This document shows positions 3,902 through 10,417 of a stretch of DNA of 39,582 nt, piece after piece. A program made the position numbers and the translations under genes. Position 1 is the stretch's first letter; each line of letters starts with the position of its first letter. Below the pieces are notes generated by a model. It had not been told where the DNA came from, made no database searches, and saw nothing but the letters and a program-made list of their open reading frames with translations. The stretch is taken from assembly GCA_009885895.1 (NCBI GenBank), contig VFJV01000052.1, positions 1 to 39,582 on the forward strand, in the 5' to 3' direction. The stretch comes from Gammaproteobacteria bacterium (GTDB lineage: Bacteria > Pseudomonadota > Gammaproteobacteria > UBA1113).

Positions 3902-5446
3902 ATGCCTAAAATAAAATCCCCCAATGAAGAGCCTCTAGAGAAACAACTCTGGAAAGCTGCTGATAAATTGCGCAAAAACATTGATGCCGCGGAATATAAG
4001 CATGTTGTACTGGGGTTGATCTTTCTTAAATACATTTCAGACTCCTTTGAAGAGCATTTTGCCCAGTTAAAAGCAGGCCTAGGCGAATATGCAGGTGCCG
4101 ATCCCGAAGATCGCGATGAGTATCAAGCTGAAAACGTGTTTTTTGTGCCAGTACAAGCGCGGTGGTCATTTTTACAAGCACAGGCCAAAGATCCCAAAAT
4201 AGGTATTTTAGTGGATGCGGCGATGGATGCGATTGAGCGTGAAAATGCTTTATTAAAAGGTGGGGTTTTGCCCAAAGGTTTTGCTAAATCAAACCTTGAC
4301 CCTAGCAGTTTAGGCGCTTTGATTGATTTAGTCGGCAATATTGCCTTAGGCGATGCTAAATCGCGCAGCGCCGATGTATTAGGCCATGTATTTGAGTATT
4401 TTCTAGGCGAGTTCGCCCTGGCGGAAGGCAAACAAGGCGGACAATTCTACACCCCGCGCAGCATTGTAGAGTTATTAGTGAATATGCTTGAACCCTACAA
4501 AGGGCGGATTTTTGACCCTTGTTGTGGTTCGGGTGGCATGTTTGTACAGTCGGAAGAATTTGTTAAAAGTCACCAGGGAAAAATAGACGATATTTCCATT
4601 TACGGACAAGAAAGCAATCAAACCACTTGGCGCTTGGCCAAAATGAATTTGGCCATTCGTGGGATTGACAGCTCACAGGTCAAATGGAACAACGAGGGCT
4701 CATTTTTAAACGATGCACACATTGACTTAAAGGCCGATTTTATTATTGCCAATCCGCCCTTTAATGTCAGCGATTGGAGCGGCGAATTATTACGCGGCGA
4801 TGGCCGCTGGAAATACGGCACACCGCCCGCGGGCAATGCCAATTTTGCCTGGTTACAGCATTTTATTTATCATCTAGCGCCGAATGGTCAAGCAGGGGTT
4901 GTTCTGTCTAAAGGTGCCTTGACCTCTAAAACCAGTGGCGAGGGCGATATACGCAGGAGGCTAATCGAGGAAGGGAACCTCATCGATTGCATTGTTAATT
5001 TACCCGCAAAACTATTTTTAAATACCCAAATTCCCGCCGCCTTGTGGTTTATGAGCCGTAAGCGCAGCAAAAGCACCATAGAACGGCAAAAAAATGAAAT
5101 TCTGTTTATTGACGCGCGCAATTTAGGGCATTTAATCAATCGCCGTACGCGTGAATTATCTGAAGAGGACATTCAACACATTACAGATACCTATCACAAC
5201 TGGCGCAATCCCAAGGGCAATTACGAAGACATCAAGGGTTTTTGTTGCAGCGCATCGATTGAACGGGTCAAAGAACTGGATTATGTCTTAACGCCTGGGC
5301 GTTATGTGGGTTTACCCGATGATGAAGACGATTTTGATTTTAAAGAGCGCTTTAGTGCCTTAAAAACCGAGTTTCAGGCGCAATTGAAAGAAGAAACGGC
5401 ATTGAATCAAGCGATTATAGAGAATTTAGCGAGAATAGATCTATGA
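3902..5446 (+). CDS. hsdM: Type I restriction-modification methyltransferase subunit (N6-adenine)
   Basis: LWKAADKLR N-terminus, GQFYTPRS, motif I FDPCCGSGG, catalytic NPPF, and LTPGRYVG. Confidence 0.97.
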   Translation: MPKIKSPNEEPLEKQLWKAADKLRKNIDAAEYKHVVLGLIFLKYISDSFEEHFAQLKAGLGEYAGADPEDRDEYQAENVFFVPVQARWSFLQAQAKDPKIGILVDAAMDAIERENALLKGGVLPKGFAKSNLDPSSLGALIDLVGNIALGDAKSRSADVLGHVFEYFLGEFALAEGKQGGQFYTPRSIVELLVNMLEPYKGRIFDPCCGSGGMFVQSEEFVKSHQGKIDDISIYGQESNQTTWRLAKMNLAIRGIDSSQVKWNNEGSFLNDAHIDLKADFIIANPPFNVSDWSGELLRGDGRWKYGTPPAGNANFAWLQHFIYHLAPNGQAGVVLSKGALTSKTSGEGDIRRRLIEEGNLIDCIVNLPAKLFLNTQIPAALWFMSRKRSKSTIERQKNEILFIDARNLGHLINRRTRELSEEDIQHITDTYHNWRNPKGNYEDIKGFCCSASIERVKELDYVLTPGRYVGLPDDEDDFDFKERFSALKTEFQAQLKEETALNQAIIENLARIDL

Positions 5447-5862
5447 ATAACGAATTACGCTGGAAACAACGCTTTGGAAATTTTGAAAATGCGTATGCGC
5501 TGTTTTTACGGCGTATCAATGAATATGAAGAATTCCCCTACAAAGAAGCGTACCAAATGGCTTTGGTACAGGGTTTTGAAATTGCCATTGAATTGGCATG
5601 GAAGACCCTGAAGGATTATTTGGAAAATGAAGGCTACGATGGGGTTGAAAACAGCAAGCAAAGCATACGCCAAGCGTTTCAAGCTGAAGTCATCAGCCAT
5701 GCTGAAACTTGGATGAGCGCGTTAGAAAAACGCAATTTAACCAGCCATACCTATAATGTCAGTATTTTACTGGAAACCGTGCGCTTTATTCACCAAGATT
5801 TTTTCCCCGTTCTGCGCGATCTGTTTTTTAAATTAAAAAGCCATCGGGATGATTTGGCATGA
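5443..5862 (+). CDS. HEPN-domain protein (HI0074 nucleotidyltransferase substrate-binding / HepT-like RNase toxin)
   Basis: RWKQRF start, QGFEIAIELAWKTLKDYLE, and RNLTSHTY = RX4HXY HEPN motif. ATGA overlaps with both neighbours. Confidence 0.92.
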   Translation: MNNELRWKQRFGNFENAYALFLRRINEYEEFPYKEAYQMALVQGFEIAIELAWKTLKDYLENEGYDGVENSKQSIRQAFQAEVISHAETWMSALEKRNLTSHTYNVSILLETVRFIHQDFFPVLRDLFFKLKSHRDDLA

Positions 5863-10200: not shown

Positions 10201-10417
10201 TGACAGCTTGCGAGAATTAGCGCTGGTTTTAGCTCAAAAAGTTCGGGAAAATGCCTCAATTGACTGGATGATTAAGGAAAACGTGAGGGCTAAATTAAAG
10301 GTCATCATTAAGCGGACTTTGAAGAAATACGGTTATCCGCCCGATATGGAATTGTTGGCCATTGACACTGTCTTAGAACAAGCTGAAAGGATGGCGGAGG
10401 AATTTTCCGATGAATAA
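7295..10417 (+). CDS. hsdR: Type I restriction endonuclease subunit R
   Basis: Nuclease RPD...ELK, Walker A WHTQGSGKS, DEAH, and QAIARVNR. Start moved from the track's 7211 to the in-frame ATG at 7295 (MNHLTESDLE), which overlaps the hsdS stop as ATGA. Confidence 0.96.
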   Translation: MNHLTESDLEQHAIQLLQGLGYNYFPGTQLERSRLDEVVLTECLSAAVHRINPHIPELARAQAIQDILRIQSPDTLANNERFHRALTEGVKTTKTENNQERGDLVWLVDFNNPDNNEFIAVNQFTVIENHQHKRPDLILFVNGLPLVVMELKNPADENATIKSAYQQLGTYKRTIPSLFTYNALLVISDGLDAKAGSLSADFNRFMAWKSADGKNEASHLTSQLEVLINGMLNKATLLDLVRHFVVFEKSKKEDAAGIISIHSVKKIAAYHQYYAVNKAVASTLQAAAVAGNRKAGVVWHTQGSGKSLSMVFYTGKIVLALDNPTVLVMTDRNDLDDQLFETFSASTQLLRQEPVQACNREHLKYLLRVVSGGVVFSTIQKFQPEQGNVYDALSDRRNIVVIADEAHRSQYGFAAKTLDEKDANGLIIGKKTVYGFAKYLRDALPNATYLGFTGTPIEKTDVNTPAVFGDYIDIYDIAQAVEDGATVRIFYESRLAKAALSEEGKALIHDLDEELALDELSDTQVLKSRWTQVEALIGSTQRIKNIALDIVQHFEARHEVCPGKGMIVCMSRRIAALLYSEIIQCKPDWHSEDFSKGAIKVLMTAASSDGYEMSLHHSTKQERKNLAARMKDPEDPLKLVIVCDMWLTGFDVPSLHTIYIDKPMQGHNLMQAIARVNRVYLDKPAGLVVDYLGIAADLKKALSFYTDAGGKGDPTVLQEEALDMMQEKIEILEAMYQGFNIEAYFTADTGQKLSLILAAADRILGLDNGKDRYFNAVRALSEAFAIAIPHEEAMAVKDKVAFFQAVKARLAKFEARGPGKSALELETTIKQVIDKALVSEQVVDIFDAAGIKKPDISILSDEFLAEIRGMKHKNIALAVLKKLLTDELKTRAKTNLAQSKSLLEMLETSLKKYQNRVLNAAEIIEELINISKEVVAGDNEAKDLGLTAYEYAFYTAVASNDSAKALMQHDSLRELALVLAQKVRENASIDWMIKENVRAKLKVIIKRTLKKYGYPPDMELLAIDTVLEQAERMAEEFSDE

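Follow-up and report, generated by a model that had tools for sequence, protein, structure and literature searches.

The window, that is, the whole stretch of DNA analysed, comprises 39,582 nt of contig VFJV01000052.1 (assembly GCA_009885895.1, Gammaproteobacteria bacterium) and carries a four-gene type I restriction–modification (RM) operon at positions 3902–10417, all on the forward strand. The first gene, hsdM (3902–5446), encodes a methyltransferase subunit of 514 aa. It is followed by a gene for a 139 aa HEPN protein of the HI0074/NTase_sub_bind family, a predicted RNase toxin (5443–5862), and by a single reading frame of 479 aa (5859–7298) in which a Pol-beta-type minimal nucleotidyltransferase (MNT), a predicted AMPylating antitoxin, precedes HsdS (MNT::HsdS). 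The last gene, hsdR (7295–10417), encodes a restriction/translocase subunit of 1040 aa when read from its ATG; the longest ORF begins at a TTG at 7211, and Pfam places HSDR_N from residue 4 of the ATG form. The gene order and the ATGA overlaps that had been predicted at all three junctions (hsdM/HEPN, 5443–5446; HEPN/MNT::HsdS, 5859–5862; hsdS/hsdR, 7295–7298) were confirmed on the DNA and in the ORF list. An mrr-like type IV (modification-dependent) restriction gene on the same strand, 3′ of hsdR (10502–11431; Mrr_N and Mrr_cat; PADLOC mREase_IV, 8.7e-82), rounds off a small defence island. The hsd locus was found in neither of the two same-family genomes searched and is therefore accessory. 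Elsewhere in the same genome there are two free HEPN–MNT pairs, whose MNTs might cross-neutralise.

HsdM carries the Pfam domains N6_Mtase (PF02384, 6e-107) and HsdM_N (PF12161, 1e-23) and matches PADLOC MTase_I (1e-193); in a PDB sequence search it was nearer to the M protein of EcoR124II (1.9e-39) than to that of EcoKI (4e-18). The HsdS part of the fusion (aa 106–479, 6174–7298) consists of TRD1, a central helix, TRD2 and a C-terminal helix, with two Methylase_S domains from aa 106 (Pfam), Specificity_I over aa 104–477 (PADLOC, 6.5e-96) and matches to PDB 5ybb_D and 3okg (E 2.5e-43). HsdR combines HSDR_N, SWI2_SNF2, T1R_D3 and T1RH-like_C (Pfam), matches TIGR00348 (1e-183) and has as its sole PDB relatives the EcoR124 HsdR entries (E about 1e-32). 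Domain searches and the AF2 model of the fusion thus reveal an N6-adenine HsdM, an HsdS with two TRDs and two helices, and a three-part HsdR; judged from its sequence, the operon is a complete type I RM system, closer to EcoR124 than to EcoKI.

The HEPN protein belongs to NTase_sub_bind (PF08780; 2.3e-30, 105.6 bits versus 31.8), with a weaker HepT-like match in Pfam, and scores 70.8 bits against TIGR01987, exceeding the NCBIfam cut-off of 55.8. This is the family of the Haemophilus influenzae pair HI0073/HI0074, which is free-standing and annotated as a two-protein nucleotidyltransferase. PDB matches were to the Legionella HEPN toxin (8xdj, E 1e-20) and to H. influenzae 1jog (E 1.5e-4), and no PADLOC model matched the protein. 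We regard its assignment to the HI0074 family as well supported. The original prediction had drawn on HepT/MntA type VII pairs. An AMPylating type VII pair is indeed what the Legionella relatives and the aligned Tyr point to, but the family is a different one: the HEPN of HepT/MntA (DUF86-type) pairs is PF01934, and the protein here was rejected as a HepT equivalog (NCBIfam NF047751/NF047752 HepT/MntA set) at 24.5 bits against a cut-off of 60. In HepT/MntA of Shewanella oneidensis and the Aphanizomenon HEPN/MNT pair, a GSX10DXD enzyme reportedly neutralises the HEPN RNase by oligo-AMPylating the Tyr after RX4H. Pairs of the HepT/MntA type are reportedly antitoxin-first. According to the accessible text of PMC3710099, MNT is almost always 5′, whereas HEPN comes first in 111 of the 126 PF08780 pairs of clear order in our census.

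The RX4HXY motif of the HEPN protein is intact, as had been claimed, and reads R97-N-L-T-S-H102-T-Y104 (5731–5754). Among full-length HEPNs adjoining fusions, R97 and Y104 were each present in 19/19 and H102 in 18/19, and all three residues were invariant in 20 sequences. Y104 aligns with the AMPylated Tyr105 of the Legionella HEPN, with R-N-x-T-S-H-T-Y common to both proteins, and Q43 and E46 correspond to the Legionella metal-site residues Q44 and E47. Departures from this pattern were seen at locus L007, where the catalytic His is replaced by Gln, and at L076, a locus of the divergent subfamily B (below), where R..H is missing.

In the fusion, aa 1–102 (5859–6164) form the MNT domain, which matches Polbeta PF18765 (8e-13, aa 11–101) and PF01909; at 35.2 bits it did not reach the NCBIfam MntA_antitoxin cut-off of 60. 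Residues 3–101 match the Legionella MNT (PDB 8xeh_E, E 9e-11). Translation of 5946–5990 gives the GSX10DXD catalytic motif (G30, S31 … D42, V, D44), and its G30, S31, D42 and D44 are unchanged across 47 fused proteins. The AlphaFold model (pLDDT 83.9, pTM 0.70) comprises an MNT fold over aa 1–100, ending there without a fourth helix, a linker of ∼6 residues and a complete HsdS with two TRDs and long helices at 245–286 and 431–471. The motif in the translation, the paired Methylase_S domains and this model bear out the proposal that an intact MNT is in frame with a complete two-TRD HsdS.

At the junction (aa 101–106, R G V S A W; 6159–6176), V103 is encoded by a GTG (6165–6167) preceded by a G-rich run, and this codon could be a relic HsdS start. 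An M, L or V lies three residues ahead of an invariant Trp in 19 of the 47 fusions, the window's own included, while about as many join G directly to W. Because those 19 retain such a codon, internal initiation could also yield free HsdS. The original prediction had allowed that the fusion might be unique to this assembly. It is not: contigs from two further samples, of another study, bridge the junction (about 6160–6176) with 0 gaps (6059–6248 and 5934–6197), and these contigs, together with the many fused homologues, the class census and the recurrence of the fusion described below, show that it is not an assembly artefact.

When a HEPN dimer was modelled with MNT aa 1–106, the interface reached an ipSAE of 0.68 against 0.00 for the best of three controls, a value that may reflect memory, since the similar complex 8xeh has been solved. 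Of 80 solved complexes, 58 attain the ipSAE mark, compared with 2 of 110 mismatched pairs. Runs shared at least 90% of contacts, with a partner pLDDT of 91. The modelled contacts, MNT 39–40 and 65–73 with HEPN 72–95, are consistent with the shared alpha-2 interface described in the accessible text of PMC11586414. As a model, the prediction is an indication of likeness to the solved complex rather than of binding.

That Legionella pneumophila type VII pair (8xdj, 8xeh) is the closest solved relative for both halves. Its MNT, which according to the same source poly-AMPylates HEPN Y105 and lacks the alpha-4 helix (PMC11586414), resembles the domain here in being short, in having no alpha-4 helix and in possessing GS..DxD. 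The Legionella MNT is, in contrast, a free protein of 108 aa, whereas the MNT analysed here forms the N-terminal part of HsdS and is encoded within a type I RM operon.

NTase–HsdS fusions beside HI0074-family genes in hsd operons were sought, as the original prediction had proposed, and proved numerous. The fused N-terminus was matched at E ≤ 1e-3 by 204 protein clusters among 283 candidates; both NTase and HsdS domains were present in 119 of 120 clusters among the matches listed, which came from many phyla. Within a set of 80 related loci, 18 carry fusions of one MNT subfamily, A, and in all 17 with upstream DNA the fusion is directly preceded by a HEPN ORF, the two overlapping by 4 nt in 10 of them. 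Five loci carry a fusion of the divergent subfamily B, four with HEPN upstream. The fusion has thus recurred, being found in two MNT subfamilies that are divergent; on the MNT tree, too, the fused state recurs, with 36–38 changes, at least 4 of them forced by starred branches. In a census of a class sample of 401 genomes, in which 138 HI0074-type HEPN genes were scored, MNT::HsdS directly followed 12 of the 138, in 11 of the 400 other genomes; one of these fusions has two tandem MNT domains. A further eight census pairs are unfused but lie no more than about 3 kb from hsd genes of the same strand, nearly all of these pairs between hsdM and hsdS, so that 12 of 20 hsd-linked pairs are fused. Where hsdM, hsdS or both could be seen, the pair occupied the slot between hsdM and hsdS, or the matching slot, in 18 of 19 cases and lay after hsdS in one. 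The suggestion that the tie between antitoxin and HsdS is not accidental is upheld by this conservation, recurrence and placement, and a functional link of the HEPN–MNT pair to HsdS is well supported.

Other RNases and accessory genes are known from hsd operons. PrrC, with its type IC RM system EcoprrI, is likewise a HEPN-superfamily RNase encoded inside a type I hsd operon, and latency of the RNase depends on the RM complex, a second-line response following once RM fails, as we propose here (accessible parts of PMC3874165, PMC12707154 and PMC3710099). As described there, PrrC is a single polypeptide that includes an ABC ATPase domain; protein–protein contact holds it, and the phage Stp peptide plus dTTP releases it. 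The module here was rejected as a PrrC relative, its HEPN being a single-domain protein of 139 aa without an ABC ATPase domain; unlike PrrC, this HEPN has an enzymatic antitoxin covalently fused to HsdS. Embedded defence genes (TgvAB, PMC11411939; ‘guilt by embedding’, bioRxiv 10.1101/2024.01.29.577857) also lie within hsd operons, but in the accessible text of those reports each cassette is a gene of its own, in most cases located between hsdS and hsdR, whereas the present module has one partner joined to a core subunit of the RM enzyme. Because of that fusion, the HEPN gene alone would be picked up in a search for embedded genes. Our literature search found no paper describing an MNT::HsdS fusion with HEPN.

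The explanation we favour, to which we give about an even chance, is that an HI0074/HI0073-type HEPN–MNT (type VII) pair was captured between hsdM and hsdS of a type I RM operon, that the MNT stop codon was lost, making the antitoxin the N-terminal domain of HsdS, and that toxin silencing thereby became coupled to HsdS. By homology, the MNT would dock on HEPN and AMPylate Tyr104 beside the R97-x4-H102 RNase site, rendering the RNase silent. The antitoxin would be produced solely within HsdS, from one translationally coupled message, so that silencing would depend on the synthesis and integrity of HsdS and the RM complex. Free HsdS tends to be unstable without HsdM. Upon loss, shut-off or destruction of the operon or of HsdS, new unmodified HEPN would cleave RNA and growth would arrest; possible triggers are gene loss, phage-induced shut-off and perhaps anti-restriction attack. 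As AMPylation is covalent, quick release of the toxin would need a de-AMPylase or fresh synthesis, and none of the genes in the four-gene operon is a de-AMPylase gene. With such a module a type I system, normally non-addictive, would stabilise itself, and the module could serve as a second-line fail-safe.

The comparative data fit operon addiction about as well as a guard. If the pair is purely an addiction module, its sole role is to keep the hsd operon or island in place through post-segregational growth arrest, with no part in phage defence, and the fusion makes loss of hsdS costly; we think this possible but doubtful. Type I RM systems are not known to show the addictive behaviour of type II systems. 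The pair is invariably placed inside the operon beside hsdS, and the window's hsd locus is accessory among the same-family genomes searched. In two proteins, MNT is joined to just the last 90–125 residues of an HsdR; these may be deletion scars that retained the antitoxin. An Acetobacter plasmid has kept the pair together with hsdS and hsdR, and IS elements occupy the expected hsdM site, the PLSDB gene table for this plasmid being incomplete. The toxin is the first to decay in 2 of 17 loci, where HEPN is truncated or split (L055, L068). Against pure addiction, the window's locus lies between housekeeping-type genes, on a contig on which neither an integrase nor a tRNA was found. Related operons are moreover crowded with cassettes between hsdS and hsdR (an OLD-type ATPase with UvrD helicase, SIR2 with HerA, GmrSD, Schlafen, Abi_C and RhuM-Fic), a defence context that goes beyond maintenance alone; addiction and defence are not mutually exclusive.

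A stronger form of the guard idea makes the HsdS-tethered MNT a sensor: intact M2S or R2M2S would keep HEPN AMPylated, and failure of the complex would free HEPN and abort infection. The tethered antitoxin would be disabled once phage DNA mimics (Ocr/ArdA type) or other anti-restriction factors bound the complex or took it apart, or once HsdS was degraded. We hold this to be rather unlikely. If it were true, HEPN with MNT::HsdS would constitute a widespread class of RM guardian under enzymatic control, with an origin separate from that of PrrC; the combination occurs in about 3% of the genomes sampled from the class and in many phyla.

It may also be that a passenger pair landed upstream of hsdS and lost its stop, the two halves remaining uncoupled and working as before. 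Free pairs are the norm, MNT being free after 99 of the 138 census HEPN genes and 91 of those 99 having no hsd gene nearby. Fused and free MNTs intermix on the MNT tree; one set of identical domains was found in both states, and the fused MNT domain is 74% identical to free MNTs versus 68% to other fused ones. The Acetobacter plasmid supplies an unfused intermediate, with MNT and hsdS in frame and separated by a stop and 12 nt. Closeness to free MNTs, intermixing and this intermediate suggest that fusion may be mutationally cheap and nearly neutral. At L133 the two are unfused and out of frame, L039 appearing alike, and the junctions may hold relic start codons. What makes a merely tolerated fusion unlikely in our view is that most hsd-linked pairs in the census are fused, that both of two divergent subfamilies include fusions, that fusions persist across many phyla with invariant catalytic residues, and that the pair keeps to the hsdM–hsdS slot whereas other cassettes occupy the hsdS–hsdR interval. 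Very improbable is a two-subunit nucleotidyltransferase with another target, such as a subunit of the RM enzyme, DNA or a phage molecule, that HsdS brings to DNA: the historical family annotation (‘nucleotidyltransferase substrate binding protein’) and a tether that would put the enzyme on DNA are in its favour, but in the closest characterised pair, a toxin–antitoxin, HEPN itself is AMPylated (accessible text of PMC11586414), the RNase motif and target Tyr are conserved here, and HEPN domains that only bind substrate typically lose their catalytic residues (accessible text of PMC3710099).

Type I RM systems are usually regarded as neither addictive nor able to detect that they have failed; the textbook guardians are PrrC and PARIS. 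In the ‘immunity–suicide coupling’ hypothesis of 2012–13, antitoxins seemed absent from immunity loci, as far as the accessible text goes (PMC3632139). HEPN–MNT pairs and RM-embedded RNases were known; what our literature search did not turn up is the fusion of the antitoxin to HsdS within a type I operon. The design is natural, conserved and recurrent, and it builds the predicted enzymatic antitoxin of a toxin into the RM enzyme. If the fusion is functional, it would account for the resistance of some hsdS genes to deletion and would add a family missed by current defence finders, because PADLOC has no model for the HEPN and NCBI names the fusion ‘restriction endonuclease subunit S’. The unfused form has cultured carriers (Acetobacter ascendens plasmids), so that fused and split states can be compared, and a functional fusion would offer a simple, genetically tractable model for the coupling of innate immunity and growth arrest.

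Four forward-strand ORFs fill positions 3902-10417: hsdM (3902-5446; 514 aa), a gene for a 139-aa HEPN protein (5443-5862), a gene in which a minimal nucleotidyltransferase (MNT) domain is fused to HsdS (5859-7298; 479 aa), and hsdR, which ends at 10417. The longest hsdR frame opens at TTG 7211, but ATG 7295 is the better start because Pfam HSDR_N begins at its residue 4. As originally predicted, the DNA reads ATGA at 5443, 5859 and 7295, so that a stop codon overlaps the next start at each of the three junctions. Pfam, PADLOC and NCBIfam agree that the operon encodes a complete type I RM enzyme; in PDB searches its proteins were nearer to those of EcoR124 than to those of EcoKI, from which a type IC assignment does not follow. 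An mrr-like type IV restriction gene (10502-11431) lies 85 nt downstream of hsdR, and 3902-11431 can therefore be described as a compact hsd–TA–mrr defence island flanked by housekeeping-like genes. A tRNA scan of the window returned no genes, and hence none to mark an island boundary. Scans of 3400-11900 were uninformative, both for promoters (24 promoter-like sites versus 19.1 ± 4.0 in shuffled sequences) and for terminators (10 sites versus 9.5 ± 3.8).

The claim that the MNT is in frame with a complete two-TRD HsdS was borne out. The single ORF carries a Pol-beta-type MNT at residues 11-101 and HsdS from residues 104-106, and an AlphaFold model built with 47 relatives (pLDDT 83.9, pTM 0.70) shows an MNT fold over residues 1-100, joined by only some six residues to a full two-TRD HsdS. 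V103 has a GTG codon (6165-6167), which follows a G-rich run and stands three residues ahead of the HsdS Trp; M, L or V occupies this place in 19 of 47 fusions, including that of the window. This GTG could be a relic HsdS start and, because a possible relic start codon is kept in those 19 fusions, free HsdS might be produced too.

The HEPN protein belongs to the NTase_sub_bind/HI0074 family (PF08780, 2.3e-30; TIGR01987 above cut-off). The active-site motifs originally recognized in the pair are both present: R97-x4-H102-x-Y104 in the HEPN (5731-5754), each of these three residues being invariant or nearly so among relatives, and G30-S31-x10-D42-x-D44 in the MNT (5946-5990). The closest solved proteins come from Legionella, a HEPN toxin (E 1e-20) and its MNT partner (E 9e-11). 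As described for that pair in PMC11586414, with Mg2+ the MNT poly-AMPylates the HEPN at Tyr105, the AMP adduct obstructs the RNA site, and the MNT does without the alpha-4 helix used by other MntA proteins. Legionella Tyr105 aligns with Tyr104 of the window, and Q44 and E47 with Q43 and E46; the Legionella MNT and, in the AlphaFold model, the window MNT both end without a fourth helix. Prediction of a complex between a HEPN dimer and MNT residues 1-106 scored 0.68 (best of three controls, 0.00), a mark that 58 of 80 solved complexes and two of 110 mismatched pairs also attain; because a similar complex has already been solved, this score speaks for likeness, not for binding. The runs agreed in at least 90% of contacts, with a partner pLDDT of 91. 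The likeness to the Legionella proteins, the aligned tyrosine and the conserved residues lead us to read the pair as a putative type VII-like toxin–antitoxin whose antitoxin is present only as part of HsdS. Judged by its sequence, the locus belongs to both the type I RM family and the HI0074-type HEPN–MNT family. A relative of PrrC was ruled out by domain and model searches (Pfam, PADLOC, NCBIfam), and the NCBIfam cut-offs for HepT/MntA equivalogs were not reached.

An assembly or frameshift artefact at the fusion is ruled out by hundreds of independent fusion sequences and by junction-bridging contigs from other samples. Two contigs, from two samples of a different study (X4 record 8 and X5 record 13), bridge the junction (~6160-6176) without gaps, as do two runs possibly from the source sample; stretches of the window without cover in these contig sets carry no meaning. 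A further contig from one of these samples (X5 record 14; 2.2 kb) matches only window positions 6597-6742, 7218-7277 and 7331-7370: the start of hsdR and conserved parts of HsdS are shared, and the sequence between them differs; it is a TRD-swapped hsdS allele from a related organism.

When the first 125 residues of the fusion were searched against 5.8 billion proteins, with lengths limited to 263-839 aa, 204 of 283 candidate clusters matched at E <= 1e-3, and PF18765 occurred together with PF01420 in 119 of 120 among the matches listed. Named sources include Methylococcaceae, Desulfobotulus, Firmicutes, Desantisbacteria, Caldisericia, Melioribacteraceae and a Bathymodiolus endosymbiont, and NCBI calls these proteins merely ‘restriction endonuclease subunit S’. 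Across 47 aligned fusions the GS..DxD residues never vary, nor does the Trp at the start of HsdS; the MNT part is ~60% identical, and the TRDs are shuffled, as is usual in HsdS. None of ten phage records matching the fusion protein covers both its MNT and HsdS parts. Among 599 matching plasmid records only two, both from Acetobacter ascendens, span the two parts; there MNT and hsdS are annotated separately, in the same frame and with 12 nt between, one stop codon short of a fusion. A. ascendens LMG 1591 is a carrier that is both named and in culture, and its plasmid (NZ_CP015170.1; locus L258, 4522-9661) encodes HEPN, an MNT of 100 aa, hsdS (12 nt on and in frame) and hsdR, with IS elements where hsdM would be expected.

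The original prediction had proposed looking for nucleotidyltransferase–HsdS fusions beside HI0074-family genes inside hsd operons, and many were found. From species-representative genomes 80 loci were kept, of which 18 carry a fusion of the window type (subfamily A). In all 17 with upstream DNA a HEPN ORF lies directly upstream and hsdM precedes it; the four-nucleotide overlap seen in the window recurs in ten of the 17, and the HEPN gene is truncated or split in two (L055, L068). In one of the 17, L007, the HEPN (607-1014) has Gln in place of the catalytic His and keeps the Tyr. Five further loci carry a divergent Pol-beta MNT joined to HsdS (subfamily B). A PF08780 HEPN lies directly upstream in L023, L050, L065 and L076, and none was visible upstream in L024; the L076 HEPN (6492-6917) has no R..H RNase motif and again keeps the Tyr.

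Other arrangements surround these. In the tandem doubles L069, L079 (5781-8506) and L088/G336 (131-2928), a free HEPN–MNT pair is followed by HEPN and MNT::HsdS. Genome G070 encodes a single 653-aa protein with two MNT domains ahead of HsdS (L221 5584-3216, reverse strand), and in L039 MNT and hsdS are separate genes with an out-of-frame overlap. Single-chain HEPN::MNT proteins of ~237 aa, with toxin and antitoxin in one polypeptide, were also seen, mostly in cyanobacteria such as Nodosilinea and Leptolyngbya (P0143, P0149, P0157, P0169, P0170; L172 2821-3573). The window's own 1.8-Mb genome holds two more free pairs from the same family, HEPN first in each and with overlapping genes (L081 1408-2197, forward strand; L082 914-196, reverse strand). 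A second HsdS-family match, on another contig of this genome (G000:C115:367-1518), lies in a 693-aa open frame and may represent a further type I system or a fused protein. Searches of two genomes from the same family did not find the hsd locus.

The wider context was assessed in a sample of the window's class, in which 92 of 401 genomes had PF08780 matches. We fetched 133 stretches around listed matches, annotated them with home-built profiles and scored 138 HEPN genes; outside this census are the window's own genome, the unpublished genomes G141 and G308, 16 matches that were not listed, and partial matches that are short or contain stops. A free MNT lay downstream without an hsd gene within ~3 kb in 91 cases and with hsd genes alongside in eight; the MNT was upstream of the HEPN in 15, and an MNT::HsdS fusion was downstream in 12, from 11 genomes. 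Ten HEPN genes had no MNT neighbour, several of them at contig ends, one formed a single-chain HEPN::MNT and one adjoined an MNT with an unexplained tail. HEPN-first order, unusual among toxin–antitoxin pairs, is thus the rule in this family, and the two free pairs of the window's genome follow it. Pairs tied to a type I operon numbered 20 of 138, of which 12 were fused; more distant hsd genes are missed in this count because the flanks were ~3.2 kb, and distant HsdM and HsdR families can escape the single-sequence phmmer detection used. The position between hsdM and hsdS, or a matching slot, was the place of the pair in 18 of the 19 cases that were informative. This contrasts with the hsdS–hsdR gap, which in related loci (L005, L006, L010, L055, L062, L069, L075, L079) is filled by other defence cassettes: OLD-type ATPase–TOPRIM with UvrD helicase, SIR2 with HerA, GmrSD, Schlafen/AlbA_2, DUF1016/YhcG nuclease, AAA ATPase with S8 peptidase, Abi_C, RhuM–Fic and FRG–TPR.

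Free MNTs (98-125 aa) are up to 74% identical to the window's MNT domain and thus as close to it as the nearest fused one (68%). A tree built from 214 MNT domains requires at least 36-38 changes between fused and free states, as against ~69-72 with shuffled labels, and the starred branches force at least four changes for the fused group. The tree rests on 104 columns only, with 103 of 200 inner branches lacking resolution; 26 of 240 proteins were omitted, their tails (26-150 aa) being ambiguous or their domain match shorter than 85 aa, and the entries taken as ‘free’ may include split or truncated genes. The safe statement, drawn from the tree together with subfamily B, is that the fused state has been gained or lost several times. 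Such recurrence can mean that the covalent joining is selected, or just that the change comes cheaply, a single lost stop codon being enough.

The general idea of an RM-linked HEPN toxin is already in print. At least 16 HEPN clades have been linked to R-M operons, with PrrC-like action proposed upon restriction failure (PMC3710099); RM ‘guardians’ such as PrrC and PARIS have been reviewed (PMC12707154); and it is recognized that defence systems can be found among the genes embedded within type I operons (PMC11411939; bioRxiv 10.1101/2024.01.29.577857). In a search of full-text literature, with supplementary tables, REBASE and InterPro outside its scope, we found no paper naming an NTase/MNT–HsdS fusion and none with a HEPN gene of this type between hsdM and hsdS; a listing of the architecture may exist in Additional file 1 of PMC3710099 and in the Payne et al. 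preprint tables. What is apparently new is that the specificity subunit is fused to the antitoxin that would govern an RM-linked HEPN toxin.

The original prediction stands in part: it is supported as to a type VII-like pair with its antitoxin fused to HsdS, while its biological role is something that we infer. The HEPN and MNT::HsdS could serve as a fail-safe for an RM system that is shut off or attacked. Against such guarding, AMPylation is covalent, and no de-AMPylase was seen in the operon. The two free MNTs of the same genome might replace the fused one by cross-reacting with the hsd-embedded HEPN, and the possible relic starts (GTG 6165 in the window) mean that free HsdS may arise. Furthermore, in two proteins, P0068 (324 aa) and P0147 (248 aa), the MNT is attached to no more of an HsdR than its last 90-125 residues, which are 65-67% identical to residues 915-1038 of the window HsdR. 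They look like deletion scars that have retained the antitoxin, and as such accord with addiction no less well than with guarding. The arrangement is widespread, conserved and apparently undescribed; it would couple control of the toxin to the supply and integrity of HsdS, a coupling that would stabilize the operon and through which the module could act as a fail-safe upon RM shut-off or attack.
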